Shown here piece by piece: positions 4,138-23,455 of a stretch of 32,000 nt of DNA. Numbering within the stretch: the stretch's first letter is position 1; every line of letters starts with the position of its first letter. The DNA comes from Acaryochloris marina MBIC11017. Lineage in GTDB: Bacteria; Cyanobacteriota; Cyanobacteriia; Thermosynechococcales; Thermosynechococcaceae. The DNA is taken from the NCBI RefSeq assembly GCF_000018105.1, contig NC_009925.1, positions 4,740,001 through 4,772,000 on the forward strand. Direction: 5' to 3'. The position numbers and the translations under genes were made by a program. Below the pieces are notes generated by a model. That model was given only the letters and a program-made list of their open reading frames with translations, was not told the DNA's origin and searched no databases.

Positions 4138-4255
4138 GGCAGAGAATGAGCCATTAGCCCTGAGTTTTGAGGATCCAGCTCAAAACAACAGGATATCGAC
4201 CCAGCCTTAGGCGGGGCAATCACAGCTCATCTCTGCCGGAAGATGCCTATCTTCC
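4138..4255 (+). promoter_or_regulatory. Structured 5' leader candidate upstream of the 4292 gene (nested stem-loops)
   Basis: Outer pairing: GGCAGAGAATGAGC (4138-4151) with GCTCATCTCTGCC (4225-4237), 13 bp with a 1-nt bulge. Inner hairpin: GTTTTGAG (4164-4171) with CTCAAAAC (4179-4186). Adjacent hairpin: GGAAGAT (4238-4244) with ATCTTCC (4249-4255). The element ends 36 nt before the ATG at 4292. No transcript evidence. Confidence 0.3.
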
Positions 4256-4291
4256 TATTGTCCATTACCAAGAACTCAAAGACGACATCAT

Positions 4292-6907
4292 ATGACTCAA
4301 GATACACCAAAGTCCCCTAGACGACCACGGAAGATTGGCCCTGCCGCCATTGCAGCCTTATTGGCAAGTGGTCTTTTCCAACCTCTTCTTCCCGCCTTTG
4401 CCGCTGGAACAGCTGCTGGCCAACAAATCAGTAACACGGCCACTGCAACCTATTCAGAAACGAGTGGTGGACCTACTATCGATGCCACATCAAATACTGT
4501 TACCGTCACCGTTGCAGAAGTTGCTGGTGTGACTGCAACTCCTGCCGGTTTCACTGATACAGATGGTGGTGCGGTTGAGTCAGGTGACTTTTTATACTTC
4601 GACTTCGATGTTACCAACATTGGAAACACGCTTACAGATATCCATATTCCTTCAACGGTTACCCCTGAGAACTTTACCCTCACACCAGATCCCGCTCTAA
4701 ATGCAACCGCATCAATTCTGGTCGATATCGGTGATGGGAATGGATTTGTTCCTTTGAGTGGCTTCCCCGGTGGAGTAATTCCCGACGTTGCGGTAGATGA
4801 CACGATCCAAGTCAGGGTTGTAGGTACTCCCGCTGCTGGCACATCTGCAGGTGCCGATGTCGGCGTTACCTTGGGTAGCACTGGTCCTGACAACAATGGT
4901 CCTACCACCCAGAACCAACCCGACCTCCCAGATGGAGCCAATCCCAACGAAATTCGCACCGAGGACGCTGACCCCGGTAACGGTGCTCCAGTTAACGGCG
5001 AGCGAGAAGCGAGTGCTACGAACAGTATTGAATTTGCCAGTTCCGTCCGTCCCTTAGCCTTGGCTACTGTCACCAAAATTGCCTCTAACCTGGCTCCTGG
5101 ACCAACGGCTGCTGCCAATGACGATGAGATTACCTATGACTTAGGTCTAACGGTAGAAAGTTCTTCTCCTAATGCTGCTTTCACACCAGCTGATCTAGAA
5201 GGTACAAATATTAGTGTTAATGGGTCAGTCGCTCCTCAGATCTTAGTGTCTGATGCGATTCCAGCTGGTACTGTGCTTTCAACAACTACTCTCCCTAGTG
5301 CTCCTGCTGGTTGGACTGTTGTATATACCGAAACAGCACTTACTACCACAGCAACTAACGCCCTATGGACAACTACCCTTCCAGCAACTCCCACTCGAAT
5401 TGGTTTTATCCATAACGATCCAGGGTTAAGTGATACAAACCCACAGGTACTCCGGACAGATCCAGTACAGGGACCTTTTCAGTTCACAGTAGTCACCTCT
5501 GGCTTACCAGCTACAGGTGGACAGATTGCTAACATTGCCCAGGTATTTGGTGAAACAGTCGGCGATCCTGACAATGAAGTTATTTACGATGAGTCTGGCG
5601 ACAGCAATCCCAACAACTTCAACGACGATGGTACACCACCGGATCCAACGGGTACTAATTATGACCCAACCGCTAATACTGGGGATACCGGTGTTGCAGA
5701 CCCTGTAACCCAAGGAACGGATACTGGCAACAACAACACGGGTACTGGTCCAGATGGTGAAGACAACGTGGTCAATATTGGCGACGCTGCGGGGAGTGAC
5801 GATATCCTTAATGGTCCGAATACGGTCCCTGGCGCTGTCGGTCCCACGGACGATAACGATGACTTCACCAACCAGACCACGGATGTTCCTGCTGGGGTTG
5901 GTCCAACTGATATCTTTGACCCCGCACCTGAAACCTTTAACAATACGATTCAGAATCCTGCTAGCTCTGGATTTATTTCAAATGTGACTTTACAACCTAT
6001 TTCTCCCACCCAGGCAGAATCCACGGATGATAGTGCATTAACAGGTCAATATGGCGCTAACAGCGATATTCCTACTGGTACAACGGTTACGATTACTGCG
6101 ACCGACGATGCTGGTGTTGTTCAGTCTGCTACATATACTTATAACGGTACAACCTTTGACCTGACCGGTAGCAGTACTAATGGTACTCCTGAGACTGCAG
6201 GTAACTTCAAACATGTTAATGTCGGTGACTTAAATGCAGGGCAGACCTTAAATTACACAACAGTCGTTGATTTACCTGATGGTAGCGCAGCAGGTACTGC
6301 TGATGATGTTGTCCCGAATGATGAGATTCCTGTTCCCATCCTGGCTTTTGCGGATGATGATCCTAGTGGCTCTCCTGGATATAACTTTGCCACTGGTACC
6401 CCTGAATCAACTACTAACATCACTCTTGATCGCCTCTATACCGGCTTTATGCGGTTGACTAAGGAAGTACAGATTCTGGATGAGAACGGTGTGCTTATCC
6501 AACCTTGGACTTCTGACCAACCCACCATTGATGGAGTTGATGTCCTTCCTAATTACCAAATCGAGTACCGGATTACCTACGAAAATATTTCGACTAATGT
6601 TGTCGGTAGTGGCAATACCACCCTAACCGCCTTTGACTTCGAAATTGTTGAAGATGGTAATCCTGTTGTCAACGCTGGCACTGGTGAGCAGAACGTCAAC
6701 AATAACTGGGCGTCCTTTACTGACCACGAACAAAACACCAGCGCTGACCAAGGCATAGTGGAATATTTCACCAATAGCACTGACGGAACTCCTTTAACCA
6801 CTTCAGACCCCATTGCTGGAACCAAAGTGGACAAGTATGAGAACCCCGTTGGTCAGGTCGATCCTGGCCAAACTGGTCAGTTCCAGTTCCGCCGCCGCAT
6901 CCAGTAA
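4292..6907 (+). CDS. Secreted DUF11-like repeat protein, candidate major surface or fibre subunit (871 aa, Cys-free, acidic, Thr/Asn/Gly/Asp/Pro-rich)
   Basis: Signal peptide: PRRPRKIGPAAIAALLASGLFQPLLPAFA followed by AGT. DUF11-like strand motifs: ISNTATATYS, SNTVTVTVAEVAG, DEITYDLGLTV, NYQIEYRITYENIS. DUF11-typical acidic linker: VIYDESGDSNPNNFNDDGTPPDPTG. The product has no cysteine and only 2 Met. Confidence 0.8.
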   Translation: MTQDTPKSPRRPRKIGPAAIAALLASGLFQPLLPAFAAGTAAGQQISNTATATYSETSGGPTIDATSNTVTVTVAEVAGVTATPAGFTDTDGGAVESGDFLYFDFDVTNIGNTLTDIHIPSTVTPENFTLTPDPALNATASILVDIGDGNGFVPLSGFPGGVIPDVAVDDTIQVRVVGTPAAGTSAGADVGVTLGSTGPDNNGPTTQNQPDLPDGANPNEIRTEDADPGNGAPVNGEREASATNSIEFASSVRPLALATVTKIASNLAPGPTAAANDDEITYDLGLTVESSSPNAAFTPADLEGTNISVNGSVAPQILVSDAIPAGTVLSTTTLPSAPAGWTVVYTETALTTTATNALWTTTLPATPTRIGFIHNDPGLSDTNPQVLRTDPVQGPFQFTVVTSGLPATGGQIANIAQVFGETVGDPDNEVIYDESGDSNPNNFNDDGTPPDPTGTNYDPTANTGDTGVADPVTQGTDTGNNNTGTGPDGEDNVVNIGDAAGSDDILNGPNTVPGAVGPTDDNDDFTNQTTDVPAGVGPTDIFDPAPETFNNTIQNPASSGFISNVTLQPISPTQAESTDDSALTGQYGANSDIPTGTTVTITATDDAGVVQSATYTYNGTTFDLTGSSTNGTPETAGNFKHVNVGDLNAGQTLNYTTVVDLPDGSAAGTADDVVPNDEIPVPILAFADDDPSGSPGYNFATGTPESTTNITLDRLYTGFMRLTKEVQILDENGVLIQPWTSDQPTIDGVDVLPNYQIEYRITYENISTNVVGSGNTTLTAFDFEIVEDGNPVVNAGTGEQNVNNNWASFTDHEQNTSADQGIVEYFTNSTDGTPLTTSDPIAGTKVDKYENPVGQVDPGQTGQFQFRRRIQ

Positions 6908-7011: not shown

Positions 7012-7572
7012 ATGAAACGTCGTCTATCCATCGGTCTCGGTGTCTTAGCAGTTGCCGTAGCCGTTCCTTTCGCTAGCAGCACCCCTGTTCTTGCTAACTT
7101 GCAAAAAGCAGGCGAAGCCCTCGTCCAGCAAATTCTTCAGCCCAAGGTAAAGATGGTGCTCTCTGCCGAGAAGCAAATCGTTACCACTAACCCTGAGGGT
7201 GAGCAGGAAATTTCCTGGGAAGCCGTTGAAGGCAATGTTACTGTTCGCCCTGGTGATGTCCTCCGCTACACCTTGCTTAGCGAGAATGCTGGAGACAAGC
7301 CTGCTGCTGAGTTGAAAATCAACCAGCCTATTCCGACCAAGACAGCTTTTGTTTTGGATTCTGCCCGAGCCAATGGTGCCAAGCTCACCTACAGCATTGA
7401 CGGTGGCCAGTCCTATTCTGAAAAGCCCATGGTTGAAGTCACTCAGCCTGACGGCACATTCAAAATGGAACCCGCCCCGGCTGAAGCTTACACCCATGTT
7501 CAGTGGGATTACAGCGAATCCCTCAAGCCCATGGCTTCTGTTAAAGCGGTTTACGAAGTAGCGGTTCAGTAA
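7012..7572 (+). CDS. Small secreted single-domain DUF11 (conserved repeat domain) protein, 186 aa
   Basis: Signal peptide: MKRRLSIGLGVLAVAVAVPFASSTPVLA. DUF11 core: VTVRPGDVLRYTLLSENAGDKPAAELKINQPIPTKTAFVLDS...LTYSIDGG. No Cys. Confidence 0.8.
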   Translation: MKRRLSIGLGVLAVAVAVPFASSTPVLANLQKAGEALVQQILQPKVKMVLSAEKQIVTTNPEGEQEISWEAVEGNVTVRPGDVLRYTLLSENAGDKPAAELKINQPIPTKTAFVLDSARANGAKLTYSIDGGQSYSEKPMVEVTQPDGTFKMEPAPAEAYTHVQWDYSESLKPMASVKAVYEVAVQ

Positions 7573-7814: not shown

Positions 7815-9350
7815 GTGAGACCACCTCACTTGCCATTCCCCAACCAACCCTTCCCCAGGTGGGCTCGTGCTCTGACTTCAACTTTAGTTTTGGGCAGCCT
7901 ATTTTCGAGCTCTGCCATTTCTTGGGCTCAAACCACGGAGGAAGAAGACTCCAGAGATCTTCTGAATAACACTGCTTCTTATTCCTACACCAACTCCAAT
8001 ACAAACACGCTGATTGAAAGCTTCACCAATCCGATTTCAAATGTGTTGGATCCTTCGTTGCTCGATCCCCGTGGGCAAGTTTTAGGCTGTGGCGGAGAAC
8101 CTCTCGCGGACTACACCGGGTTTACGGTCGGTCTCTACAATATTGACCCCAATGATCCGACCCAATCGGAACTAGGGAGCTTAGTGTTGTTAACCCGCAC
8201 TGAAGTTCCTGACATTCCCAATAACGGTATTGCTCTGGGCATCACCCCCAATGGATCTAACATTAACCCATTCCCCCTCACCAATGCCGATCAAGGGACC
8301 TACAGCTATCTACTAGACCCCAACCGAGGACAGCTCGCCGTGGGTCAATCTTATATCTTGGTGGTTACGCCGCCGGATGCGTCCATTTACAACCAGCGTC
8401 GCGTTCGTCTAACCATTACCTCCATTATTCCGACGGGCAACCGCAACTTGGTGACCTATCGGGCTACTTCCCTCGATGGTTTGCCCATCGCCGCAGAAGG
8501 AGAGACCAACTTTGAAGAAACGGTAACCACGATTGGGGATGCTGAGCGAATCTCGTTGCAACTACTGGCCTTAAACTTCTCTTCGACCCTGTGCCAGACC
8601 AATCAGATTCAAATTAGTAAGTCTGGGGACCGAGCCAATGCCGCCCCTGGAGATTCGGTGATTTATCGTCTGACCCTACGTAACCTGTCCGATGGGCAGT
8701 TAGACACCATTTCTGTACAAGATATTTTGCCGACGGGCTTTAAGCTGCTTCCCAACTCGGTTAGAGGGGCTCTGAATGGAACTGAGGTTCCGATTACGGT
8801 TGAGCAAAATGGTCAGAATCTAACCTTTAGGACCGACGCAGTTATTCCTTTAGAAGGGGTCATCAACGTCGTCTATGCAGCACAACTTACCCCAGATGCT
8901 ATTCGAGGCGATGGTAGAAACTCCGCCTCGGTTCTGGGATTCCGAGTCGATAACAACCTGGATGTTCGGGATGGCCCTGCAGTCCACCGAGTGCGGGTAA
9001 ACCCAGGCATCTTAACAGACTGTGGCAATATTCTAGGCCGAGTCTTCGTCGATAAAAACTTCGATGGCGAGCAGCAAACGGGGGAACCTGGTATTCCCAA
9101 TGCTGTGGTCTGGATGGATGACGGCAATCGCATCACAACCGATGAGAATGGTTTATTCCATGTCAGATGTGTATTGCCTGGACCTCGCACTGGTGCTCTG
9201 GATTTAACCACCTTGCCCGGTTACACCTTAGCCCCCAATCTCCACTTTATAGAAAGAAATAGCCCTTCGCGTTTGGTCAGACTCTCTCCCGGTAGCACCG
9301 TACGCATGAACTTCGGTGTCACACCTACCTTCCAGGAGGAGTCCAAATGA
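7815..9350 (+). CDS. Secreted DUF11 + SdrD-B/Cna-B-like domain protein (511 aa)
   Basis: GTG start at 7815, 9 nt after GAGGAG (7800-7805). Signal peptide: WARALTSTLVLGSLFSSSAISWA. DUF11 motif: ISKSGDRANAAPGDSVIYRLTLRNLSDGQLDTISVQDILPTGF. SdrD-B-like motif: GNILGRVFVDKNFDGEQQTGEPGIPNAVVWMDDGNRITTDENGLFHV. Confidence 0.8.
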   Translation: MRPPHLPFPNQPFPRWARALTSTLVLGSLFSSSAISWAQTTEEEDSRDLLNNTASYSYTNSNTNTLIESFTNPISNVLDPSLLDPRGQVLGCGGEPLADYTGFTVGLYNIDPNDPTQSELGSLVLLTRTEVPDIPNNGIALGITPNGSNINPFPLTNADQGTYSYLLDPNRGQLAVGQSYILVVTPPDASIYNQRRVRLTITSIIPTGNRNLVTYRATSLDGLPIAAEGETNFEETVTTIGDAERISLQLLALNFSSTLCQTNQIQISKSGDRANAAPGDSVIYRLTLRNLSDGQLDTISVQDILPTGFKLLPNSVRGALNGTEVPITVEQNGQNLTFRTDAVIPLEGVINVVYAAQLTPDAIRGDGRNSASVLGFRVDNNLDVRDGPAVHRVRVNPGILTDCGNILGRVFVDKNFDGEQQTGEPGIPNAVVWMDDGNRITTDENGLFHVRCVLPGPRTGALDLTTLPGYTLAPNLHFIERNSPSRLVRLSPGSTVRMNFGVTPTFQEESK

Positions 9351-12300
9351 TGAAACAACGTTCTTACCAGTGGATGCAAACTGGACTCCTCGGAATTGTC
9401 GCAGGTACCAGCGTGGCTTTAGCCCCAAATCTGGTTAATGCCCAAGTCATGGAAGAGGTCCAACCAGCAGATGAATCAACCCTGAGTGCAGATAAGCCAA
9501 CCGTTCGTGATGCTGAACCAACCTTACATGCAGAAAATTCGGCTGTTAGTGACGCTGAACCAACCCTAAGCGTTGACCAGGAATCCATTAACGAAGCTCC
9601 TACTCAAGAGCTTGTTATTGAAGAAGCCGCCGCTGATTCTGCCGTGGCTGAAGAGCCTCAAGTTAATCAACCCCAAACAGCAGCTAGTGATCCTCAGCCA
9701 GTTGCTGCCGAAGAAAACATGACTCCTGGCTCAGAAGCTACCAGTTCTGAAAGCCTAAAACAAGATATCCCAGTTGTTGTTGAACAACCGGCTGAAGCTG
9801 CACCTAAAGTTGTCGCTGAAGAGGTATCCTCCCCAACGCAACCCACCGTTTCCACGCCTCAGCCCCCAGAATCGTTGATCAAAGACACTCCCCCTGTGTC
9901 AGATGAGTCTGAGGTACCCGCCCCTGCTTCTACAGAAGCGCCCACAACTGCTCAGACACCAGCTGCTACGTCAGCTTCAGGGATTTCAATCTTAACGCCT
10001 GGTTCTGGGAGTGTGGTTGATAAACCAGCAACCACGGTCATTATTGAATTTGGTGCTGATCAAAAAGTTGAGCTAAGGGTCAATGGTAAGGCGGTTGATA
10101 GCGCTCAAGTGGGTCGAACCGAGACCAATTCTGCCACCCAGAAAGTCCGGCAAACTTGGTATGGCGTCATCCTCGATGCAGGTGTCAATACCATTACCGT
10201 CAATGAAGTCGGTCAAGAGGCCCCTAGTGCATCGGTTCAGGTAGAAGTGCCTGGTGAGCCGACTCAAATTAAGGTGCGAACGGCTCAAAGTAAAGTTCCT
10301 GCCGATGGTCGGTCTACGGCCCAGGTGTTGGGTTACTTGCTAGATGCCAATGGCAACCAGTCGAACTGGGATGCCATTGTCACCCTAGAAGCCACATCAG
10401 GAAAATTCGTGGGTACGGATAACAAACCTGATGTTCCTGGATTCCAAGTGGAAGCCATTGATGGTAAATTCACCGCTGATTTACAGTCCAGCATTAGTGC
10501 AGGGCTGGTGAGAGTTCGGGCTACTGCTGCTGATATGGAAGGGTTCCATCAGTTTCAGTTTTCCACGCCCATTCGACCTTCGGCTCTACTAACCGGGGTT
10601 GTAGATGTGCGGATTGGTCGTCGGGGCACCAACTTCTATGACAGCTTCCGCGAGTTCTTACCTGTCGATGGCGATAATGGGTATGAAGTTGATGCCCGTG
10701 CCCAAGCCTTTGGGATTACTTCCATTGGCGATTGGTTATTAACGGGGGCTTTTAATAGTGCTCGCCCCCTGAATGAGGACTGTAACGGGGAATCTACCCT
10801 GTTCAAAGCCTCAGGTACAGAGTGCGATTACAACAACTACGCTACCTACGGCGATAACTCCACTACGGATGTAACGGCCCCGTCCACCGATAACTTATTT
10901 GTACGATTAGAGCGCACCTCACCCGTCCCCGGTGCTGGTAGTGATTACTTTATGTGGGGGGATTACAACACCGAAGAATTTTCTCGGTCCTCTCAGTTAT
11001 TTACCGCCACCAGCCGCTCTTTACATGGCTTTAAGGGCAACTACAATATCGGCAATCTGCAGTTGACTGCTCTTTACGGCAATAACACTGAGGGTTTCCA
11101 GCGGGATACGATTGCTCCCGATGGCACCAGCGGATTTTATTTCTTATCTCGACGGTTGCTGGTTCCAGGGAGTGAGCAAGTCTTTCTGGAGCTTGAAGAA
11201 CTGAACCGACCCGGTACTGTCCTGAAGCGGGAGCGGTTAAGCCGAGGGGCTGACTATGAAGTGGATTATGATCGCGGTACGTTGAAATTCCAACGCCCGA
11301 TTCTACGCACAGATGTCGATGATGACGGCTTTGTGCTGGTTCGCCGCATTGTCACCACTTACCAATTTGAAGGAGAAAGTTCTGATACCAATACTTACGG
11401 CGGTCGTGCCCAGTACACCTTTTCTCGGAGCTTAGATCAGGAGAGCTGGGTGGGGGCCACCTACTTCCGTGAGGATCGCGGTAGCCAAGACTTTGAACTT
11501 TACGGTGCTGATGCTCTAGTGTCTTTCGGCAAGGATAGTTACCTGGTTGCAGAATATGCCCGGTCCAATAACTCGCTAGATTTCGCGACGCCCGTGAGCG
11601 GCAATGCTTACCGGGTTGAAATTGAGGCAAAGCCCACTGACAATATTTCGGGTCGAGCCTATTTCAAACGGGCTGATGTGGGTTTCTCCAACAATGCCAC
11701 CACTAGCTTTGTTCCTGGCCAAACTCGCTATGGGGCAGAAGTCTTAGCTGCAGTCTCTAAGAATACTAAGCTGCGGGCCAGCTTTGACCATGAGGATAAT
11801 TTTGGGGTTGCACCGCGTCCGCTTGATTTGTTTGAAGATCTAATCCAGCCCGGTTTCTCTCCCACTCCCGGTAATCCAGTCAATAACTCCCTGACGACGA
11901 TTACAGCAGGGGTTCTGCAGCGGATTGGTGATTCGGAAGTGAGTTTGGACTACGTCCGCCGCGATCGCACCGATCGTCTCACGGGCCAGGACATCACCAC
12001 GGACCAGATTCGCTCTACCGCCCGGATACCTCTGACGAAAAAACTGACCTTGCGGGCATTGAACGAGACCACCTTCTCTTCCGAAATTGATCCGATTTAT
12101 CCCAACCGTACTTCCGTGGGGCTGGAATATGAGGTTTATCCTGGCGTCACCATTGGCCTGAACAACACTTACCTGACCGGTGGACAGTTCGATGATGACT
12201 TTATCACTAGTCTAGATATCGCGGGTCAACATACCTTCTCCACCGATACCACCCTCCGAGGTCAGTTCTCGATGATGGGTGACTTGGGGATGGCTGGCTA

Positions 12301-13411
12301 CTTTGGTGTTGAGCAGGGCTTGACTATTGCTCCAGGTCTACGGGCGGATTTCTCCTATGAGCATGTGTTTAACACTGCCTTGCAGCAAACCGCCGCTAGC
12401 CAACAGTTTGCCCAACCCTTTGCCTTAGGGTCCGGTGCGTCTGCCTTAGGCTTAACCCCTGGGGATAGCTTTAGCGTCGGTTTGGCCTATACCGACAACC
12501 CTGATTTTCAAGCCAATGCTCGCTTTGAATATAGTGATACGGCTCAGGGCAGCAATACGATCATTACGGCGAACGCCTTAGGGCGAGCCACCCGCGACCT
12601 AACGGTCTTGGCCAGCTATCAGCAAGCCAGTGCCTCGAACCAAACCCTAGCAGGATTGGGCACCACCCGCGACTTGAAAGTGGGTCTGGCCTATCGGAAT
12701 CCCGATAGCGATAAGTTCAATGGCTTGCTTCGCTATGAGTATCGCGAAAATCCTTCCACGATTCCTGACACCCTACTGTTTGCTAACGGTACCGGCTCTA
12801 CGGATCATCTGATTTCAGCGGAGGCCATCTATGCTCCCAACTGGCGCTGGGAACTCTACGGCAAGTTTGGCTGGCGACATAGCAAGTCTTACCTGGCTCA
12901 GGATTTAATTGGCACCAGCAGCATTTCTCTGGCGCAAATGCGGGCCACCTATCGAATCAACTACCGTTGGGATATTGGCGGTGAAGTCCGCTGGATTCGT
13001 CAAAACAGCACTGGGTTTAATGAGGTCGGCGCTTCTGCAGAAGTGGGTTACTACCTCAATCCCAACTTGCGGTTGGCAGCTGGATACGCGTTTGGCGACG
13101 TGGGCGATCGCGACTTCGGTAACTCTCGCTCAGCCAGCGGTCCCTACTTTGGGGTCACCCTGAAGCTCGACAATAATCTCTTTGATGATTTTGGCTTCGG
13201 CAAAAATAAGGTGGCTCCTCCGCAGCAGCAGGAGTCTGTACCAGGGAACGGTCAGGTACAAGAAGCCTCAAACCCTGCTTCGACCTCTAAGGCTAAAGCG
13301 TCCAATAAAACCACCAAGCCTAAGGCTGAACTGGTCAATACCCAATCTGAAGCGGTTGCAGAGCCCGCGCCTGCACCCCAAACTCAACCTAGTTTTGAAG
13401 TCGTCCGATAG
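9347..13411 (+). CDS. Very large outer-membrane beta-barrel protein with N-terminal Pro/Glu/Ala-rich spacer and Ig-like (Big/invasin-type) domains (1354 aa)
   Basis: ATG 9347 overlaps the upstream TGA (ATGA) and GGAGGAG lies at 9334-9340. Signal peptide: LLGIVAGTSVALAPNLVNA. Low-complexity P/E/A/S/T region at about 9450-9975. Ig-like domains at about 9980-10565, with Big-type motif VPADGRSTAQVLGYLLDANGNQSNWDAIVTLEATSGKF. From about 10570 to 13170 there are long runs of amphipathic beta-hairpins rich in aromatics (for example LKVGLAYRN, LLRYEYREN, WELYGKFGWRH, RATYRINYRWDIGGEVRWIRQ, LRLAAGYAFG, PYFGVTLKL). A roughly 80-aa K/P/A/Q-rich tail follows. Confidence 0.8.
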   Translation: MMKQRSYQWMQTGLLGIVAGTSVALAPNLVNAQVMEEVQPADESTLSADKPTVRDAEPTLHAENSAVSDAEPTLSVDQESINEAPTQELVIEEAAADSAVAEEPQVNQPQTAASDPQPVAAEENMTPGSEATSSESLKQDIPVVVEQPAEAAPKVVAEEVSSPTQPTVSTPQPPESLIKDTPPVSDESEVPAPASTEAPTTAQTPAATSASGISILTPGSGSVVDKPATTVIIEFGADQKVELRVNGKAVDSAQVGRTETNSATQKVRQTWYGVILDAGVNTITVNEVGQEAPSASVQVEVPGEPTQIKVRTAQSKVPADGRSTAQVLGYLLDANGNQSNWDAIVTLEATSGKFVGTDNKPDVPGFQVEAIDGKFTADLQSSISAGLVRVRATAADMEGFHQFQFSTPIRPSALLTGVVDVRIGRRGTNFYDSFREFLPVDGDNGYEVDARAQAFGITSIGDWLLTGAFNSARPLNEDCNGESTLFKASGTECDYNNYATYGDNSTTDVTAPSTDNLFVRLERTSPVPGAGSDYFMWGDYNTEEFSRSSQLFTATSRSLHGFKGNYNIGNLQLTALYGNNTEGFQRDTIAPDGTSGFYFLSRRLLVPGSEQVFLELEELNRPGTVLKRERLSRGADYEVDYDRGTLKFQRPILRTDVDDDGFVLVRRIVTTYQFEGESSDTNTYGGRAQYTFSRSLDQESWVGATYFREDRGSQDFELYGADALVSFGKDSYLVAEYARSNNSLDFATPVSGNAYRVEIEAKPTDNISGRAYFKRADVGFSNNATTSFVPGQTRYGAEVLAAVSKNTKLRASFDHEDNFGVAPRPLDLFEDLIQPGFSPTPGNPVNNSLTTITAGVLQRIGDSEVSLDYVRRDRTDRLTGQDITTDQIRSTARIPLTKKLTLRALNETTFSSEIDPIYPNRTSVGLEYEVYPGVTIGLNNTYLTGGQFDDDFITSLDIAGQHTFSTDTTLRGQFSMMGDLGMAGYFGVEQGLTIAPGLRADFSYEHVFNTALQQTAASQQFAQPFALGSGASALGLTPGDSFSVGLAYTDNPDFQANARFEYSDTAQGSNTIITANALGRATRDLTVLASYQQASASNQTLAGLGTTRDLKVGLAYRNPDSDKFNGLLRYEYRENPSTIPDTLLFANGTGSTDHLISAEAIYAPNWRWELYGKFGWRHSKSYLAQDLIGTSSISLAQMRATYRINYRWDIGGEVRWIRQNSTGFNEVGASAEVGYYLNPNLRLAAGYAFGDVGDRDFGNSRSASGPYFGVTLKLDNNLFDDFGFGKNKVAPPQQQESVPGNGQVQEASNPASTSKAKASNKTTKPKAELVNTQSEAVAEPAPAPQTQPSFEVVR

Positions 13412-13502: not shown

Positions 13503-13534
13503 CTCTACCTAGTTTGTATCCCCAAGAGGTAATC

Positions 13535-15247
13535 ATGAAATCTCGCGGCACGCTCCACTCCTCCCCCCGCCTTCCCCAGCCCTCTTCAGGAATGGCGATT
13601 GCCTGGGCTTCCTTAACCTCTTTGATCGCCATTTCAGGACTCCTTAGCCCTTGTCAGAAGGGGGACTGCACTGCCCATGCCCAAACCCCTAGGGCTACCC
13701 CTACCCCTGTTCAAGTCACGGTGAATAGTCCGTTGGATGGCGAAATTCAGGCCGATGAAGTGGTCACCCTACGAGAAGCGATCGCAATTACCAACGGCGT
13801 GCTCCATAAAGGCGACCTCAGCAAGGCAGAACGAGCCCAAATCTCTCCCAGCACAGATCATAGCCGGATCGATTTTGACTTGCCCAGCGATAACACCACG
13901 ATTCGATTGCAGGCCCTGCTGCCCACCATCACCAACCCCGGTCTTTTGATTGATGGCACCAGCCAAGCGGGTTATGCCCTTGTAGATGGTGACGCCAGTG
14001 CCCCGGCACCGGTCGTTGCCCTGACCCCAGCCGAGGATGTAGAGGTGTTTCGGGGATTAACCCTAGCCGCGGATCAGGTCCATATCAAAGCCTTGAGCCT
14101 TTATGGATTTACCTCCATCCATAAAACCACTGCGACAACACCACCTGCGGATATTTTTATTGCCCATCGGCTCCTGCCGTCCAAGCGTCTCAAAGAAGAC
14201 AACCCCCAAGTCACCTATCCCTACGATGACGAGCGGGATATTCCCCCCCAGGGCGTCATTATTGAGGATAACTATTTAGGGATTACACCCCAAGGAACTG
14301 CCCCTACTGCCCCTCGATCGGCCTTTGGTATATCCATTTACAACGCCATTGGCACGCGGATTCTCAACAACCGAATTGCTCAACATGATGGTAGCGCTGT
14401 AATTACCAGCATCCGCGCCGAACAAACGGAGATTGCCAACAACATCATTGAGCAGAATGGCTTGGCCGGAATGCCCGACGCCATCCGCCTAGAGGGGGAT
14501 ATTGATGGCACCAAAATCCATATGAATCAGATTCAACAGAATGCCGGTAGTGCTGTTTATCTCTTCAAGCCCGAAGGGTCAGTCATGGTTGAAAAGAACC
14601 TGATTGCAGACAATGGTCAACGTTTCCGTCGGGCCGCCATTTTGCTGATGGGGGATAATCACCATGTCGTCAACAACACCATTCAAGACCAACCGGGTCC
14701 AGGTGTGGTGATCACGTCTTATCCCACGAGCCAGCGCAACTATATCCTCGACAATCGATTTGCCAATCTTGACGGCCTCAGCATCGATTTGATTGCTCGT
14801 GAAAACCGTTTTCTTGACCGCTTCTCCCGCATCTCCATCAACCGCGTGGACTTAGCGGATCGATCCAGTACTAGAGTGCAAGACTACCAAGTCGGGGATG
14901 GTCCAAATCCCTTACGCAATTCAGACCAACGCAAGCGCGATACCGCCAACCGAGGCTTGAATACGCCTCAGTTTCTCAGCTCCGAATTTTACATTATGGA
15001 TGGGGCGGTCAACCTGGATGGGGAAGCCGATCCAGGGGCTGAAATTGTACTGTATAAGGTGATGGAAGAGGGTAAGCAAGGTCCTCTTAATGAGCCTGTC
15101 ACGATGGCCAAATCCGATGAAGAGGGGCGGTTTGCCATCACTCTCACGGACGCAAATCCAGGCGATCGGTTCAGTGCGATCGCAATTCATCCTGACTACG
15201 GCACCTCAGAGCCCGCTCGCAATGCCATTGTCTTAAATCTCAGATAA
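13535..15247 (+). CDS. Secreted right-handed parallel beta-helix repeat protein (NosD/pectin-lyase-fold-like) with a C-terminal Ig/carboxypeptidase-regulatory-like domain
   Basis: ATG 13535 is preceded by AAGAGG (13524-13529), so I prefer it to the TTG at 13514 used by the ORF track. Signal peptide: MAIAWASLTSLIAISGLLSP. Periodic beta-helix rungs: ILNNRIAQHDGSAV, IANNIIEQNGLAG, IHMNQIQQNAGSAV, VEKNLIADNGQRF, VVNNTIQDQPGPGV, ILDNRFANLDGLS. C-terminal motif: GEADPGAEIVLYKV...SDEEGRFAITL. Confidence 0.8.
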   Translation: MKSRGTLHSSPRLPQPSSGMAIAWASLTSLIAISGLLSPCQKGDCTAHAQTPRATPTPVQVTVNSPLDGEIQADEVVTLREAIAITNGVLHKGDLSKAERAQISPSTDHSRIDFDLPSDNTTIRLQALLPTITNPGLLIDGTSQAGYALVDGDASAPAPVVALTPAEDVEVFRGLTLAADQVHIKALSLYGFTSIHKTTATTPPADIFIAHRLLPSKRLKEDNPQVTYPYDDERDIPPQGVIIEDNYLGITPQGTAPTAPRSAFGISIYNAIGTRILNNRIAQHDGSAVITSIRAEQTEIANNIIEQNGLAGMPDAIRLEGDIDGTKIHMNQIQQNAGSAVYLFKPEGSVMVEKNLIADNGQRFRRAAILLMGDNHHVVNNTIQDQPGPGVVITSYPTSQRNYILDNRFANLDGLSIDLIARENRFLDRFSRISINRVDLADRSSTRVQDYQVGDGPNPLRNSDQRKRDTANRGLNTPQFLSSEFYIMDGAVNLDGEADPGAEIVLYKVMEEGKQGPLNEPVTMAKSDEEGRFAITLTDANPGDRFSAIAIHPDYGTSEPARNAIVLNLR

Positions 15248-15300: not shown

Positions 15301-15345
15301 CTCTGATCTCACTTAAGAAAAGGAGTGAGATCAGAGTGTTTTGTT
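15301..15345 (+). terminator. Rho-independent terminator-like hairpin after the beta-helix gene
   Basis: CTCTGATCTCACT (15301-15313) pairs perfectly with AGTGAGATCAGAG (15324-15336), a 13-bp stem with a 10-nt loop. The T-rich run TGTTTTGTTCC follows. Confidence 0.65.
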
Positions 15346-15363
15346 CCTGTTCCTCAATGCATT

Positions 15364-17823
15364 ATGTTTTCATTCAATTGTTTTACCCAGAATTCCTATT
15401 GCCAAAATTCTCTCAAAAAATTAAAATATGCACTACGCAGTGCAAAATGGTTACCCGTTGCAACGTTTGCCGCTACAGCATTCAGTATTCTTGTAGCTCC
15501 TTCCGCAGCACTAGCCCAACGTAACTTTTCCCCACGTTTTAGCACTCAAGCTAGGGGGCGAACCACTATCTTCGGAAATCCGGTTACCACCTGTTCTTCG
15601 ACTATTGGTCCCAGAAGAGATATTTGTGCAGCGACTCAACAGGCGACGACAGGGAGTGGCATCGACTTCACCAACAACGGTTATTGGATGGACTATGTGG
15701 ACATTGATAGTGATGGCTCAACATTCAACTCCTCTTCAGTTACTTACAATTTCCCTACCGCGAATCCTGGCTTTAATATCGTCTGGGCAGGACTTTATTG
15801 GGCTGGGGAAACTTCAGCTGGCGCTGCAAGCGGTGGTATTCCTGCTGGTGAAGCAGCTATCGATGCTAGCAAGCGGAACGAAATGTTACTGCGTATTCCC
15901 GGATCATCAACCTATCAAACTATCACTGCAAGCACCTTAGATACGATCAATACAACCCGATATAGTGCTTTTGCGAATGTCACTTCTTTGGTGCAACAAG
16001 GGGGGAGTGGAACTTACTTTGGGGCCAATATTCAAACGGGGAAAGGTCGCGATCGCTATGGTGGCTGGGCGTTAATCGTCGTCTATCAAGATGATTCGGA
16101 AATACTGCGAAGTATGACTGTGTTTGATGGTTTTATTCAGGTTGGAAATAATATCGTTGATACTACAATCAGTGGTTTTCTAACTCCAAATGCCGGGCCG
16201 TTTGAAGCTGCATTCGGGGCGTTTATCAGTGAAGGAGATGTAGGCCTAACGGGTGACCAATTTTTGATTGATGGGGATGGTGCCAACTCCGATGGCGATG
16301 CAACGGACCAGCCTTTCGTCAATATTAGCGATGCCAATAGCCCGACGACCAATTTCTTTAACAGTTCAGCTTCTTTATTTGAGACGCGAATTGGAACCAA
16401 TACAACGGTCAACACGCCTGATGGCAAGACCCTCGGCCCCATTACCCGGAATCCCGATTATCCCAATTTGCTGGCCCTGGATATTGATATTGTGGAAGCA
16501 AAAGATGCGGCAAACAATGCGGTCATCCAAAACAACGCCACAGAAGCAGGACTGAGATTTACCAGTTCAGGGGATTTTTACTATCCCACCGCTTTCTTTT
16601 TCAGTGTTGAAGTCTTTCAACCCGTCTTGACCCAGAACTTCACCAAGACAGTGACGGATATCAACGGAGGCGATTTGAATCCCGGTGATATTTTGGAATA
16701 CACGATCACTTACCGAAATACCGGGAATGATGCGGCGACTGACGTTGTTTTGACGGATGACATTCCCACTCATACGTCTTACGAACCCAACTCTCTGGTC
16801 ATTACCACCGATCCTGATCCGACCCTGACGACTCCAGCGGCGATGGGAGATGGGACCGCAGATAATGATCGGGCTGAATTTGATAGCGTTAATAACCGCG
16901 TGGTTTTCCGGACAGGGATTGGAGCCAATGGGACCAATGGCGGAGAAGTTCCCTTTGACGACCCCAATACACCGATCGCAGAGAACGATACTGTCCAGGT
17001 CAAATTTAGAGTGAAAGTGGATGGTGATATTAACGTCTTTCCTACGACCATTTCTAACCAGGCCGCAATTGACTACAACGGTAAGTTCTCTGGCATTCCA
17101 TTCTCCGGGGTCAGTGATGACCCCACCACTCCCAATGATCCGAATGATCCGACGGATATAGATGTGGTTGAAGCCTCATCGCCCAACCTGATCTTGGTCA
17201 AACGCATCACGCGGATTAATGGCAGCACAGTCAATGGTGCCGTGAACCTAGAGAACTATGTGGATGATGCCAATAGCCCTTACGACGATAACGTGGACGA
17301 AATCCCCCCCTTTGCTGGACAATCTGATCCAAACCAGGATGACACCACCCACTGGCCAGATGCAGATGCAGCCAATGGCCCTGATGACTATCTAAAAGGA
17401 GCGATTGCTGCGGGTGAAGTCAAACCTGGAGATGAGGTTGAGTACACCATCTATTTCTTATCTACGGGGGGTAAGGATGCGATTGATGTACAGCTTTGTG
17501 ATAAAGTCCCTGCTTTGCAACGTTTTGTACTGGATGCTTATAACGCGGTAACGCCAGCGCCCAGTGGAGGTGTCGGGGCCAATCGGGGGATTGAAGTGGA
17601 GTATAACGGCACCATTTTGTCTTATACCAATGATGCCGATGGAGATACTGCTCAGTATTATCCACCTGGCTCAACTCTTCCTGCCCCTTGTAATAATGCC
17701 CCGGCTCAATCAGAAGACAATGGTGCTGTGGTGCTTGACCTAGGCACACTCCCTGAATCAACGGCTCCAGGAGCACCAACCGCCTCCTATGGCGCGTTGC
17801 GATTCCGGGCCAAGGTAAAGTAG
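15364..17823 (+). CDS. Secreted adhesin-like protein: N-terminal lectin/jelly-roll-like domain, DUF11 domain, and a C-terminal module shared with the 18194 gene
   Basis: The ORF-track start (GTG 15325) lies inside the terminator hairpin, so the first in-frame ATG at 15364 is preferred. Signal peptide: AKWLPVATFAATAFSILVAPSAALA. N-domain motifs: IVWAGLYWAGE and RYGGWALIVVYQD. DUF11 motif: DLNPGDILEYTITYRNTGNDAATDVVLTDDIP. Shared C-terminal module at 17182-17820. Confidence 0.8.
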   Translation: MFSFNCFTQNSYCQNSLKKLKYALRSAKWLPVATFAATAFSILVAPSAALAQRNFSPRFSTQARGRTTIFGNPVTTCSSTIGPRRDICAATQQATTGSGIDFTNNGYWMDYVDIDSDGSTFNSSSVTYNFPTANPGFNIVWAGLYWAGETSAGAASGGIPAGEAAIDASKRNEMLLRIPGSSTYQTITASTLDTINTTRYSAFANVTSLVQQGGSGTYFGANIQTGKGRDRYGGWALIVVYQDDSEILRSMTVFDGFIQVGNNIVDTTISGFLTPNAGPFEAAFGAFISEGDVGLTGDQFLIDGDGANSDGDATDQPFVNISDANSPTTNFFNSSASLFETRIGTNTTVNTPDGKTLGPITRNPDYPNLLALDIDIVEAKDAANNAVIQNNATEAGLRFTSSGDFYYPTAFFFSVEVFQPVLTQNFTKTVTDINGGDLNPGDILEYTITYRNTGNDAATDVVLTDDIPTHTSYEPNSLVITTDPDPTLTTPAAMGDGTADNDRAEFDSVNNRVVFRTGIGANGTNGGEVPFDDPNTPIAENDTVQVKFRVKVDGDINVFPTTISNQAAIDYNGKFSGIPFSGVSDDPTTPNDPNDPTDIDVVEASSPNLILVKRITRINGSTVNGAVNLENYVDDANSPYDDNVDEIPPFAGQSDPNQDDTTHWPDADAANGPDDYLKGAIAAGEVKPGDEVEYTIYFLSTGGKDAIDVQLCDKVPALQRFVLDAYNAVTPAPSGGVGANRGIEVEYNGTILSYTNDADGDTAQYYPPGSTLPAPCNNAPAQSEDNGAVVLDLGTLPESTAPGAPTASYGALRFRAKVK

Positions 17824-18193: not shown

Positions 18194-21100
18194 ATGATGT
18201 TTCTCAAATTCTCTAAGCCATACTTGCCCGCTTCAATGACATTTAAGAAAATACTGACAGGTCTTATTCTATCTGGGGCTTTGGAAAGTGTTGGCTATGG
18301 CGGAGCATTACTGGCTAAGGAAACATACCCACACGCTCAGAAATATCAAGTCTCTGCCCATACCCTACTCCAAACTGACTTGGAGCAAACTTCAAATCCT
18401 CTTCATTCCGCTCGCGCAACGGATGTGGTGATTATTGATGCGGGTGTCACCAATTCCCATGCGTTGCTAAAAAATATCCCCAGTCAAGCAGCCGTTCACT
18501 ATCTCAGCCCAACTGGCGATGGATTGGAGCAGATTGGCGATATCCTCAGCAATTATCGAAATCTCAAATCAGTACATTTGCTGGCTCATGGCTCTTCAGC
18601 TCAATTGCAGCTAGGCAACTCATGGGTTAATCCCGCAACTCTCAACCATAGGGCCAAACAAGTTCAGTCGTGGCAAGCCGCGCTATCGCCAACAGCAGAT
18701 ATCTTTCTCTATGGCTGTCATGTTGCCTCTACTGTGGAAGGGAAAGCCTTTGTGTCTGACCTGGCCACTTTAACCGGCGCTGATATAGCTGCCTCAGATA
18801 ATCTGACAGGTGATGCAACCCAGGGTGGAGATTGGACCTTGGAGTATCAGTTGGGTGACCTAGAACCCCATAGGATTTCTCAGCAACTAGCCCTGTCGAA
18901 TTACGATCAGGTTTTGCAAGTTACCGTTCTCAATTTCAATGACCCAACGCCTTCTTTAGAGCCTGCCACAACGGACGTTTTTCGCTTTCAAAATGTCGCT
19001 ACTGTGGGTGGACAAAGTATTGACGCCCTAGTCACGGTTAGCAATATCAATAATGCAACCCTCACTAACTTGGATGATAATGGCTCTTTCCCTGAGCGAT
19101 TCCAACCTGTGATTCGTCATGATGGTGGAGCCAATGCCATCTCCTCTATCCGATTTGATTTTCAGCTCGTTCAAGCGGGAACAACAACTCCTTTAGCCGC
19201 GACCAATGTTTTTTTTAGTGCCCAAGACGTTGACGGTAATGGCTCTGCTAACTCTGTTAGAGAATTTGTAGAAGTCATTAACGCGGAAACTGTCTTTATC
19301 GACGACCCTACTTTTTTGGAACTCGCAGCCTCATTAGCAGGAGGAATCCGCCATCGAGTTATTAATTCCTCCAATGTGCAAAGTGGTATCGGTACGGACG
19401 ATCGCTACGAAATTTACAGTTACTTGGGGGATACCGTTACTAACTTTTCGATTGTTGCTGGTAATGATGTGGGATCTGCCAACTGTTCCGGGGCAAGCTG
19501 CCCTCGCCAAAACTCTTGGACCTTTGATATTTCCGATATTCAAGTGATCGATTTCAGTGATGCGCCATCTACTTATGGCGTTCCTTCCCATGCTGGCACT
19601 GCAGTGACTACGCTTCGACTCGGGACTGCAAGGGATGGGGATAGTGGTCCTATTCCTTCAGCCGATGCTTTAGGAGACGATAACAATGGCTCTGATGATG
19701 AGGATGGTGTTACCTTAGCCCCCCTCAATGCCAGTGATACCTCCTATTCGATTCAGGCATCGAGTCTTTCCGTCACCAATAGTACGGGAGGTCCAGCAAC
19801 CCTACACGCCTGGGTTGATTTTGATGGCAATGGTACTTTTGACTCCGATGAGTATACAAGTCAACCCGTACAGAACGGTATTAGTTCACCAGATGGAGCC
19901 TTAACCTGGTCGGGGGCTGGAGTAAGCGGAATGTCAGGGGGCACGACCACCTATGCGCGTTTCCGGATTACGACGGATGGGGGTATTAATGCCAATACTC
20001 CGGGTGGATTTGCCAGGGATGGTGAGGTGGAAGATCATGCCCTTGCGATCACAACTCCAGTCAATCCAGATATAGATAATAACTTCTGCCAGGTGAGCAG
20101 TGACATGATGTTTATCTTGGATAAATCGGGTTCCGTGAGTCTCAGTGAGCGACGATTACAACGAGATGCGGTTATGGCAATGCTCAATTACTTGGTCGAT
20201 AACAATATTACGTCTCGGGTAGGTATTGTCCGGTTTGACTCTACAAGTGCCACAGTGATCGGTTATACCGATGTAACGGCTGCTAATCTGCCTACTTTTG
20301 AAAGCGCCCTCAATACTAACTATGTCAATATTGGTGGGGGCGCCACCAATTGGGAAGCTGGATTCCAGCAGGCTATTTCCCTGGGGGTATCACCGGGCAG
20401 CCCTGATGTCGTTTTCTTCTTCGCTGATGGCAACATCAATTCGGGAGGCAGCCCGAACGATGAAGCGTTGCAATTCAAGCAGGCGGGTGCTCATATTTAT
20501 GGAATTGGTATCCAAAGTTTAGATATCGATGATTTCTTGGATATAACCGATGGTAGTAATACCACTCAATTTGACGCTGCGCTGGATAATGCTAATTCTG
20601 CCGATTATGTAGAAGTTAATAGCTATGACGACTTAGCGGACGATATGACCAGCTTGTTACGTTCACTTTGTCCACCTGCAACCAACAACCCCAATGTGTT
20701 ACTGGTCAAGCGGATCACCCGCGTGAATGGCCTCACAGAGAATGGGGGCACTAACCTCAATGTTTACGTTGATGACCCCAGCTACGAGTACGATGACAAT
20801 ACCCTCGGTAGCCCTGCGCCCACTCCCTTGGATACCGAATACTGGCCCACTCCAAGCACCTTTTTACTGGGGGCCACCAATGGAGGTCAAACCCGTCCAG
20901 GGGATGAAGTTGAGTACACCATCTATTTCCTATCAACGGGTACTTCAACGGCCGTGGGTGTTCAATTCTGCGATAAAGTTCCTAGTTTCCAAACCTTTGT
21001 GCCTGATGCGTTTAACGCCGTACCCCCTGCACCTAGTGGAGGCGTCGGAGCCAATCGGGGCATTGCAGTCGAATACAACGGCAGTCTTCTCTCATTTACC

Positions 21101-23365: not shown

Positions 23366-23455
23366 AATGCCTCAAAGAGTACCCGATCGAGGACTGGGTC
23401 TGGGTGGCCTACTTCCCTAATCTTAGCGGTAGTTCTTTTCACGGGAGTACCGTCC

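Follow-up and report, generated by a model that had tools for sequence, protein, structure and literature searches.

The locus considered here lies in a stretch of 32,000 nucleotides from the cyanobacterium Acaryochloris marina MBIC11017 (the window) and raises the question of what a giant outer-membrane (OM) beta-barrel protein, preceded by Ig-like domains and encoded by a gene that overlaps that of a secreted CLIPPER(DUF11) protein, does in the cell. The gene of the barrel protein, called D below, exists as the first-pass annotation had described it, and the order of domains that was read from it is borne out: a signal peptide, a spacer rich in Pro, Glu, Ala and Ser, two Ig-like domains, a beta-meander of 861 aa and a tail of 80 aa. 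These features are as follows, with the evidence for each in brackets.

9347..13411, + strand: gene D, giant OM beta-barrel protein of 1354 aa (ORF list, homologues and structure predictions)
9347..9445, + strand: Sec-type signal peptide, aa 1-33, MMKQRSYQWMQTGLLGIVAGTSVALAPNLVNA followed by Q (read from the sequence; equivalent N-termini in 60+ orthologues)
9446..9979, + strand: low-complexity spacer rich in P, E, A, S and T, aa 34-211 (composition)
9980..10564, + strand: two tandem Ig-like domains, ~aa 212-301 and ~aa 307-406, the second similar to Big_1/invasin D3 (AlphaFold2, sub-threshold Pfam matches, Foldseek)
10586..13168, + strand: beta-barrel region, aa 414-1274 (861 aa), with 38 predicted transmembrane-type strands (AlphaFold2/DSSP, dyad hydrophobicity, loop-length parity, DCA, Foldseek)
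11114..11386, + strand: conserved insert of 91 aa, aa 590-680, between strands 7 and 8 (cross-phylum conservation, DCA)
13169..13237, + strand: conserved post-barrel motif DNNLFDDFGFGKNKVAPPQQQES, aa 1275-1297 (44 aligned cyanobacterial homologues)
13238..13408, + strand: variable tail rich in Lys, Pro, Ala and Gln, aa 1298-1354, predicted to be disordered (pLDDT <50)

The spacer is dominated by E (15%), A (15%), P (14%), S (11%), V (10%) and T (9%). It is a family trait of variable sequence, 25-245 aa in length; in homologues the whole region N-terminal of the first Ig-like domain, signal peptide included, measures 57-277 aa (median 155) and consists to about 60% of P, E, A, S, T and Q once past the signal peptide. 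Among the short repeats first reported in the spacer of D, DAEPTL does recur, in two copies only (aa 54-59 and 70-75), and a search for a tandem repeat in the DNA found none. The Ig-like pair is modelled by AlphaFold2 (AF2) as two beta-sandwiches with a pLDDT of ~77-87, and the Foldseek matches are the GH2 C-terminal Ig pairs and intimin D0-D1. The motif VPADGRSTAQVLGYLLDANGN is situated in the second domain, whose Pfam matches are all below threshold (Big_1, E 0.004; Invasin_D3, E 3e-4; GH2_C5, E 5e-6), those to Big_1 and Invasin_D3 mapping to aa 305-398.

The description of the following region as a giant OM-type barrel stands on several lines of evidence. Structure prediction had been proposed at first pass as the means to count strands; AF2 gives a pLDDT of 77.9 and a pTM of 0.73 for this region, all five models scoring 74-78, and the pTM suggests one compact fold. 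DSSP and loop-length parity together predict 38 membrane-type strands, 7 ahead of the insert and 31 behind it. Hydrophobic and polar residues alternate along these strands, turns of 2 residues and long loops are found on opposite sides, DCA recovers hairpin ladders, and the best 50 Foldseek matches are all OM barrels. D has the generic traits of OM beta-barrel proteins: it carries a signal peptide, and its amphipathic strands form an antiparallel meander in which short turns alternate with long loops. The DCA ladder between the first and last strands has a Z of 3.3, a level that 41% of random blocks reach. We infer a single closed barrel, the contents of its lumen and the position of the insert, because these are read off DSSP, pTM and loop parity. 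By prediction, the ~38 strands exceed the number in every solved single-chain barrel. Searches by sequence and profile against Pfam, NCBIfam and PDB sequences matched D to no known family: DUF2490 remains sub-threshold (29.5 bits for a cut-off of 29.8), and neither ushers, LptD, SprA, MtrB and intimin, with which comparison had been suggested, nor TonB-dependent transporters gave a sequence or profile match.

No stretch of the superfamily is better conserved than the insert, in which G593, S595, G596, R633, Y637, G644 and D656 are invariant across phyla and which has no match in Pfam or the PDB. It contains the segment GFYFLSRR...FQRP (aa 596-651), a putative plug as read at first pass. The strands that flank it pair in a DCA ladder (575-686), and loop-length parity would place it in a hairpin on the extracellular side.

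The final strand of the barrel, GPYFGVTLKL (aa 1265-1274), precedes the tail of 80 aa (aa 1275-1354). The composition attributed to this tail applies past its first 23 residues; these form a conserved motif, (D)N(E/N)LFxGFGxQKxxPPQQQES, and the remainder alone varies, from 0 to 90 aa, the entire post-barrel tail with its motif measuring 15-112 aa across homologues. The internal position of the last strand had been called unusual. It is not, because an OmpA domain follows the barrel in some distant relatives, where it replaces the variable tail, and because OmpA and ushers themselves have C-terminal periplasmic parts.

The word atypical, applied at first pass to the architecture as a whole, also proves misleading, since hundreds of homologues share this architecture, which is the rule throughout a large family. 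The family counts at least 449 species loci among cyanobacteria and 1939 clusters of sequences across many phyla, with no characterised member among those examined. Three proteins of Deinococcus radiodurans (AAF11946, UID71982 and UID69687) have been listed as "38-stranded, N-terminal invasin D3 domains", the table offering neither a function nor partners or a family analysis (von Kuegelgen et al. 2022, PMC9388160, SI Table S3). Likened by description, they have invasin-D3 Ig-like domains first and a giant barrel next, as D has, and the same predicted number of strands; their host and that of D are both diderm Terrabacteria. No Deinococcus record occurs among the named homologue matches of D.

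The partners of D are to be sought among its neighbours, all on the same strand.

4292..6907, + strand: gene A, secreted DUF7925 protein of 871 aa, first of the A-B-C-D block (Pfam, E 1e-59)
7012..7572, + strand: gene B, secreted protein of 186 aa with a single CLIPPER domain (TIGR01451, E 1e-7)
7815..9350, + strand: gene C, secreted CLIPPER(DUF11) and SdrD_B protein of 511 aa (Pfam, NCBIfam)
9335..9350, + strand: C-D junction, with GGAGGAG at 9335-9341 inside C, the ATG of D at 9347-9349 and the TGA of C at 9348-9350 (sequence; orthologous loci arranged alike)
13514..15247, + strand: gene E, right-handed beta-helix (NosD-like) protein of 577 aa, an optional member (Pfam)
15301..15336, + strand: terminator-like hairpin after E, with a 14-bp stem and a T run
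15325..17823, + strand: gene F, CLIPPER/isopeptide-type fimbrial-like protein, with a shared C-terminal domain at 17176-17820 (Pfam, NCBIfam)
18194..21295, + strand: gene G, DUF4347, GEVED and VWA protein, with the same C-terminal domain as F at 20678-21292

The order A-B-C-D is invariant among cyanobacteria. Gene C is found in all 74 of the loci having upstream sequence, genes A (its order unchanged) and B in 66 of 80 loci each, and gene E in 33 of 80. The ATGA overlap between C and D, noted at first pass together with the GGAGGAG inside C, is present and is kept in at least 57 of 71 cyanobacterial loci; overlaps of the same type are seen in other phyla (loci L084, L090, L091 and L092). Where the two genes are split outside cyanobacteria, the one directly 5' of the D-like gene encodes a CLIPPER/SdrD_B protein in 7 of 7 loci, and in Roseivivax a DUF11 protein of 6107 aa is encoded there. 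The position of B is taken in L084 and L092 by small genes of 160-172 aa, with a weak CLIPPER match in L092 only. Outside cyanobacteria C-like and D-like parts are often fused and then followed by a peptidoglycan-binding OmpA module; such single polypeptides belong to Thermodesulfobacteriota, deltaproteobacterial and Acinetobacter members, as illustrated by the matches of C aa 250-505 to P0182 aa 673-923 (E 6e-30) and of D aa 197-1275 to P0196 aa 901-1926 (E 7e-65).

All proteins of the locus bear an N-terminal signal-peptide-like sequence, and VWA, GEVED and isopeptide fimbrial D2 domains, modules of adhesin type, are found among them. In fibrillar adhesins, CLIPPER domains serve as modules of the stalk (PMC12617251). 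The domain shared by F and G, ~205 aa long, stands exactly at the C-terminus of 1-3 downstream ORFs (478-2125 aa) per locus in 62 loci; profile comparison detected nothing shared between A, B and this domain beyond the generic CLIPPER motif. Family searches found no other OM or secretion component at the locus, nor could a chaperone, an ATPase or another source of energy be recognised there, and the PapD-like chaperone family had no match in the 15 window ORFs scanned.

We read D, tentatively and with somewhat less than even confidence, as the OM translocon or anchor of a dedicated and conserved system for CLIPPER(DUF11)-type surface proteins. Because its members always come with an Ig-like surface-protein gene, either coupled to it or fused with it, the D family may be a new route of adhesin export or anchoring. 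After export by Sec, D would be inserted by BAM to form one barrel of ~38 strands with both termini in the periplasm, the C-terminus being placed there because an OmpA domain or gene comes after the barrel in relatives. The spacer and the two Ig-like domains would extend into the periplasm, as would the post-barrel motif and tail, whose place is held in other phyla by the peptidoglycan-binding OmpA module. Stop/start coupling would ensure that C is made in fixed proportion to D, of which it may be the obligate partner, docked on the Ig-like domains and/or within the wide lumen. The barrel would serve as a conduit and/or an anchor allowing A, B, F and G, all exported by Sec, to reach or stay at the surface, with F and G as variable clients bearing the shared C-terminal domain, and the pore may be gated or lined by the conserved insert that follows strand 7.

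Two known systems bear on this scheme. Ushers (FimD/PapC) resemble D by their OM barrel, their N-terminal periplasmic beta-sandwich domains, their C-terminal periplasmic extension and a small beta-rich domain inserted in an early barrel hairpin, and also by an operon that encodes several surface subunits of Ig fold. The difference from ushers asserted at first pass nevertheless holds, since no usher family is matched by sequence or profile (PF00577, PF13954 and PF13953 were all negative) and the Foldseek TMq for FimD is 0.20-0.23. The usher barrel has 24 strands against 38, and its plug lies between strands 6 and 7 at a periplasmic turn whereas the insert of D lies between strands 7 and 8, on the extracellular side by parity. 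Usher systems include a gene for a PapD-like chaperone that the D locus lacks, and their subunits are incomplete Ig pilins, in contrast to the CnaA-like CLIPPER domains encoded here. SprA, the T9SS translocon and, with 36 strands, the largest solved single-chain barrel, is comparable to D in being very large and could in principle pass folded domains; by this analogy, A, B, F and G would probably be exported already folded. T9SS cargo proteins also recall those of the D locus by their variable N-terminal parts and conserved C-terminal domain. However, D matches no SprA family (Pfam, NCBIfam; Foldseek TMq 0.15-0.16) and has half the length of SprA, which exceeds 2000 aa; its locus lacks PorV/PorU-type partners and offers a CLIPPER/SdrD_B protein as partner, and D is distributed over Cyanobacteria and many phyla without a T9SS.

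It is rather unlikely that D is instead self-contained, holding only C, or its own N-terminal CLIPPER stalk, threaded or plugged in the barrel and displayed as in autotransporters or LptD/LptE, the other proteins of the locus not being exported by D. The order of the fused polypeptides, stalk, C-like module, Ig domains, barrel and OmpA, is that of type Va, passenger first, and autotransporters have, like fused relatives of D, N-terminal passenger-like repeats and a C-terminal barrel. The downstream neighbours of the fused genes P0193 and P0214 are unrelated, but their contigs end 5' of the fused gene, so that upstream partners are possible. Type V secretion also joins Big_1/invasin-D3-type Ig domains to an OM barrel, and the LysM of intimin parallels the peptidoglycan-binding module of D relatives; yet type V barrels have 12 strands against ~38, D matches neither IAT_beta nor Autotransporter in Pfam, and its cyanobacterial partner is a separate gene. 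Inverse autotransporters (Ve) have an N-terminal barrel and a C-terminal Big_1 passenger, opposite to D, which can be called the inverse of intimin as to domain order alone and not as a relationship. C and D are strictly coupled 1:1, which recalls LptD/LptE and MtrA/MtrB, where a large barrel (26 strands) is likewise tightly coupled genetically to an obligate partner that occupies its lumen, a role here proposed for C, and the best Foldseek matches include MtrB; these systems differ from D by the lack of homology, the fold of the partner and the substrates (LPS, electrons). A self-contained anchor would leave unexplained the invariant A and B and the downstream proteins with the shared C-terminal domain, and 38 strands go far beyond the need for holding one linker.

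Lower in probability, and in our opinion doubtful, is an envelope scaffold or large porin that, like SlpA/OmpM, ties the OM to peptidoglycan, via its spacer, Ig-like domains and tail, or in other members via an OmpA module, with the CLIPPER proteins forming a periplasmic or OM-associated lattice. Deinococcus SlpA, a 30-strand barrel, provides the best Foldseek matches (E 1e-9), and SlpA/OmpM are, like D, large Terrabacterial barrels with an N-terminal periplasmic extension; the long proline-rich spacer would suit periplasm spanning. Many relatives have an OmpA module fused to the barrel protein or next to it, also beside C-like modules: in some fused relatives, such as P0208, the OmpA domain comes after the C-like module and before the barrel, and in L083 it is borne by the C-like protein itself. 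C-like modules may for this reason be periplasmic and not surface-exposed, and on this point an envelope scaffold therefore fits as well as a secretion route. The likeness to SlpA is nevertheless limited to TM-scores of ~0.25, with 30 strands against 38 and profile similarity not found. SlpA/OmpM has SLH and a coiled-coil stalk, whereas cyanobacterial D has no SLH match, coiled coil or OmpA domain, its AF2 model lacking a long helix and starting with a disordered N-terminus followed by the Ig-like domains. The adhesin-type modules on locus proteins also speak against a scaffold, and the D-type copies of Proteobacteria, plasmid-borne and patchy, argue against a core envelope role.

A TonB-dependent receptor, the energised nutrient importer after which NCBI names many D homologues, has hardly any likelihood left, as nothing but this name and a generic Foldseek likeness to transporter barrels (TMq 0.15-0.19) favours it and membership of that family is refuted: there is no match to Plug (PF07715), TonB_dep_Rec (PF00593) or an NCBIfam receptor, the D profile finds no TonB-dependent transporter among PDB sequences, and D has ~38 strands against 22, with the spacer and Ig-like domains where an N-terminal plug is expected.

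The reading of D as the OM translocon or anchor of a CLIPPER system can be carried further, into a proposal that is possible and that we would not yet call probable: together with its coupled CLIPPER/SdrD_B partner and a peptidoglycan-binding module, D may constitute a previously unrecognised pathway of OM secretion and assembly. Its translocon, of 38 strands and wider than SprA, would serve for the export and/or anchoring of fibrillar adhesins that are folded, isopeptide-stabilised and brought across the inner membrane by Sec, and the C-terminal domain of ~205 aa would mark the cyanobacterial clients. If true, this pathway would span bacteria from Cyanobacteria to Ignavibacteria, Bacteroidota and Proteobacteria.

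Gene D (9347-13411, forward strand) encodes the protein considered here, a giant predicted outer-membrane β-barrel. Its reading frame of 1354 residues and the domain order claimed for it in the first-pass annotation were both recovered, and its parts are as follows.

Residues 1-33: signal peptide
Residues 34-211: low-complexity spacer, composed mostly of E, A, P, S, V and T
Residues about 212-301 and 307-406: two Ig-like domains, from the AlphaFold2 model
Residues 414-1274: β-meander
The 80 residues after the β-meander: tail

The spacer is common to the family and varies in length and sequence. The short repeat DAEPTL reported in it is present but only twice, and a search for DNA tandem repeats in the spacer gave none. 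The segment VPADGRSTAQVLGYLLDANGN, singled out earlier as a Big-type motif, lies within the second Ig domain, which has sub-threshold Pfam matches to Glyco_hydro2_C5, Invasin_D3 and Big_1; Foldseek with the first model of D matched GH2 C-terminal Ig pairs and intimin D0-D1. The tail has the length of 80 residues attributed to it; its first 23 residues follow a conserved consensus, (D)N(E/N)LFxGFGxQKxxPPQQQES, beyond which it is variable (0-90 residues among homologues).

Directly upstream, gene C (7815-9350, forward strand) encodes a secreted protein with domains of the CLIPPER (formerly DUF11) and SdrD_B families (Pfam, NCBIfam). The ATG of D (9347-9349) overlaps the TGA of C (9348-9350), and GGAGGAG is found 5' of this start at 9335-9341, an arrangement from which coupling of the two genes had been proposed. 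For comparison, 80 loci were retained, all cyanobacterial. Gene C stands directly upstream of D in every locus retaining upstream sequence (74/74); of 71 loci, at least 57 have overlapping stop and start codons (ATGA or TAATG), and 7 more have a gap of 3 nt or less between them. Non-cyanobacterial loci with split genes follow the same plan, a CLIPPER/SdrD_B gene directly preceding the D-like gene in all seven examined, with a stop/start overlap in four. Moreover, C-like and D-like sequences form one polypeptide in many relatives: residues 250-505 of C align with residues 673-923 of the fused homologue P0182 (31% identity, E 6e-30), and residues 197-1275 of D align end to end with residues 901-1926 of a second one, P0196 (27% identity, E 7e-65). 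In such fused proteins, CLIPPER, CarboxypepD_reg and SdrD_B domains are N-terminal to an Invasin_D3 domain and the barrel. Because the overlap is kept in most loci, a CLIPPER/SdrD_B gene lies upstream elsewhere and natural fusions exist, the coupling proposed for C and D is real and conserved.

A further module recurs at the other end of the barrel. P0182 carries an OmpA domain behind it, and in other relatives this domain is either fused at the same place or found inside the C-like protein. In proteobacterial split loci, an OmpA-family gene directly follows the barrel gene, overlapping its stop by 4 nt in L091.

L090, 12185-13285: OmpA-family gene
L091, 12291-13355: OmpA-family gene
L087, 12587-13669: OmpA-family gene

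The structure of D was modelled with AlphaFold2 from residues 200-1354 with 45 cyanobacterial sequences (pLDDT 70.5, pTM 0.54) and from residues 400-1290 with 74 sequences, some of them from distant phyla (pLDDT 77.9, pTM 0.73; five models all 74-78). DSSP assigns to the barrel model long strands with alternating hydrophobic residues, 7 before a conserved insert and 31 after it, giving 38 on the assumption that residues 571-589 are one kinked strand and that 663-675 belong to the insert. With the corresponding parity, all long loops (10-46 residues) fall on one side and nearly all two-residue turns on the other. In the model, this parity puts both barrel termini in the periplasm, in agreement with the OmpA domains found behind the barrel in relatives of D. 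Many hairpins between neighbouring strands emerged from mean-field DCA (351 homologous sequences, Neff 238, L 889), which also paired the strands flanking the insert (575 with 686, Z 6.4); it gave no signal for pairing of the first and last strands, a result that neither confirms closure nor counts against it. From the model, we infer a single closed barrel. The best 50 Foldseek matches in the PDB are all outer-membrane barrels, including SlpA, MtrB, TonB-dependent transporters, FimD, SprA and LptD, with a TM of at most 0.25, and therefore no solved structure has the size or fold variant of D. The largest experimentally determined single-chain barrel is that of SprA, with 36 strands (bioRxiv 10.64898/2026.03.07.710327), which the 38 strands predicted for the D family would exceed.

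The insert consists of 91 residues (590-680) located between strands 7 and 8 and is the most conserved segment across the superfamily, G593, S595, G596, R633, Y637, G644 and D656 being invariant from cyanobacteria to Ignavibacteria and Proteobacteria. Its profile gave only chance-level matches against PDB sequences and Pfam, and its assignment to a known domain was rejected. By loop parity, the insert would be on the extracellular side; if it plugs the pore, it would do so from the face opposite to that of the usher plug.

Concerning the identity of the family, phmmer and a family profile found no match to the barrel among all PDB sequences, and no Pfam or NCBIfam family scored above threshold in D, the only barrel signal being a near-threshold DUF2490 at residues 1199-1254. 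TonB-dependent receptors, ushers, LptD, SprA, MtrB, intimin and SlpA were each rejected as assignments for want of sequence or profile matches, in addition to the low TM values. NCBI and UniRef nevertheless name most homologues "TonB-dependent receptor" (for instance P0005, P0009 and P0023). This reading was discarded as no defining feature is present in D; P0005, P0009, P0023 and others have no plug or receptor-barrel signature despite their name, and the label looks like a misannotation propagated to hundreds of database entries. The cyanobacterial tubular (CT) pilus of Microcystis, with MrpC, was also set aside, since it has another pilin fold and gene cluster and no barrel gene (PMC12397347). 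No published function of the D family was found in the full-text literature, where the only mention of such an architecture that was found is in a supplementary table on Deinococcus (von Kuegelgen et al., PMC9388160). The first-pass observation on D is confirmed, its interpretation only in part. Rather than being an oddity, D is typical of its superfamily, which is large and uncharacterised.

The closest relatives are found in Acaryochloris MAGs (80-98% identity), which assigns the window to that lineage, and relatives occur in at least 449 species-representative genomes. An exhaustive phmmer search with D returned 1939 clusters (50% identity) at E ≤1e-3 and 1378 at E ≤1e-10. For distant members, the profile was built from distant barrels in a barrel-only alignment, the full fused protein P0193 being swamped by DUF11 repeats when used as query. 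It detected members in Ignavibacteria, Bacteroidota, Marinimicrobia, Kapabacteria, Gemmatimonadales, Syntrophales and Gamma- and Zetaproteobacteria, all annotated as "hypothetical" or "OmpA family". Plasmids or chromids encode relatives in Picosynechococcus NIES-970, Kovacikia, roseobacters, Sinorhizobium meliloti, Vibrio campbellii and Acinetobacter haemolyticus. On the Roseivivax sp. THAF40 plasmid (L088, 1-9142), a DUF11 protein of 6107 residues is encoded directly upstream of the barrel homologue.

The locus extends on both sides of C and D.

4292-6907, forward: gene A, DUF7925 protein (871 aa)
7012-7572, forward: gene B, single CLIPPER domain (186 aa)
13514-15247, forward: gene E, β-helix protein
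15301-15336, forward: strong terminator-like hairpin with a 14-bp stem, directly after E
15325-17823, forward: gene F, with a C-terminal domain at 17176-17820
18194-21295, forward: gene G, with the same C-terminal domain at 20678-21292

Genes A, B, C and D keep their order and strand in 66-74 of the 80 loci, and two related loci (L084, L092) display a similar large-small-medium-C-D pattern; E is present in 33 of the 80. Since this hairpin runs into the GTG given as the start codon of F, translation of F probably begins at the ATG at 15364. Genes A to E may constitute one transcription unit. The C-terminal domain common to F and G (about 205 residues, 63% identical) terminates one to three same-strand ORFs downstream of D in 62 loci (for example, L019 17101-17718 and L086 19365-19889). 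The ORFs are otherwise of unrelated length (478-2125 residues), and in nearly all of them the domain ends 0-1 residue before the stop; it resembles a module for sorting or attachment. The proposal that B is a bare form of a "pilin domain" of A, F and G is not supported: profile comparison with hhalign does not reveal anything that A or B have in common with the F/G C-terminal domain beyond a generic CLIPPER motif of about 45 columns (probability 46-92%). All locus proteins have signal-peptide-like N-termini, and no further outer-membrane or secretion gene was found in the locus.

Upstream of A, a 1.3-kb AT-rich gap (2953-4291; GC about 0.39 versus about 0.49 elsewhere) contains no ORF of 150 residues or more and may be a regulatory region; no Rfam match to a regulatory RNA was obtained there or across the whole window. 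GGDEF (c-di-GMP synthase) genes adjoin two distant loci (L090 13441-13962, L092 12147-13160), which may hint at biofilm-type regulation or be coincidental. In the window, the locus is followed downstream by genes for a SnoaL-like protein (22117-22599, reverse), a GAF-LuxR regulator (22661-23365, reverse) and a rhodanese (23348-24289, forward). They adjoin it in the closest pair of Acaryochloris MAGs (L001, L003) too, but not in other cyanobacteria. Farther on, two genes overlapping by 4 nt (24515-29344 and 29341-30681, both reverse) encode a 1609-residue protein containing 12 or more WD40 repeats and a 446-residue AAA/STAND-type NTPase, a pair unrelated to D, followed by a DUF559/Vsr-like endonuclease gene (30902-31354, reverse).

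We know of no established route by which Sec-exported CLIPPER/DUF11 adhesins cross the outer membrane of diderm bacteria. The D barrel is an obvious candidate because it is always coupled or fused to a CLIPPER/DUF11 protein. In the mechanism that we favour, D would form one 38-strand barrel in the outer membrane, its Ig domains and tail lying in the periplasm, C would bind D, and the barrel would serve as route, anchor or both for the CLIPPER proteins of the locus. Alternatively, D might be a self-contained anchor displaying only its partner C, in the manner of autotransporters or LptDE, a reading to which we give perhaps one chance in a few. An envelope scaffold or outer-membrane-to-peptidoglycan connector, in favour of which OmpA modules adjoin C-like modules in relatives, appears rather improbable. 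A barrel whose predicted size exceeds that of every solved one, with an obligatory link to adhesin-type proteins, makes a new outer-membrane pathway possible, and a role in secretion or anchoring, if true, would establish one. The family is common, being represented in at least 449 cyanobacterial species and, across phyla, by about 1900 sequence clusters, and homologues exist in culturable hosts, several of them genetically manipulable (Picosynechococcus, on a plasmid, Sinorhizobium meliloti, Vibrio campbellii and Acinetobacter). A role in secretion or anchoring would also open a way to study how cyanobacteria adhere, aggregate and form biofilms.
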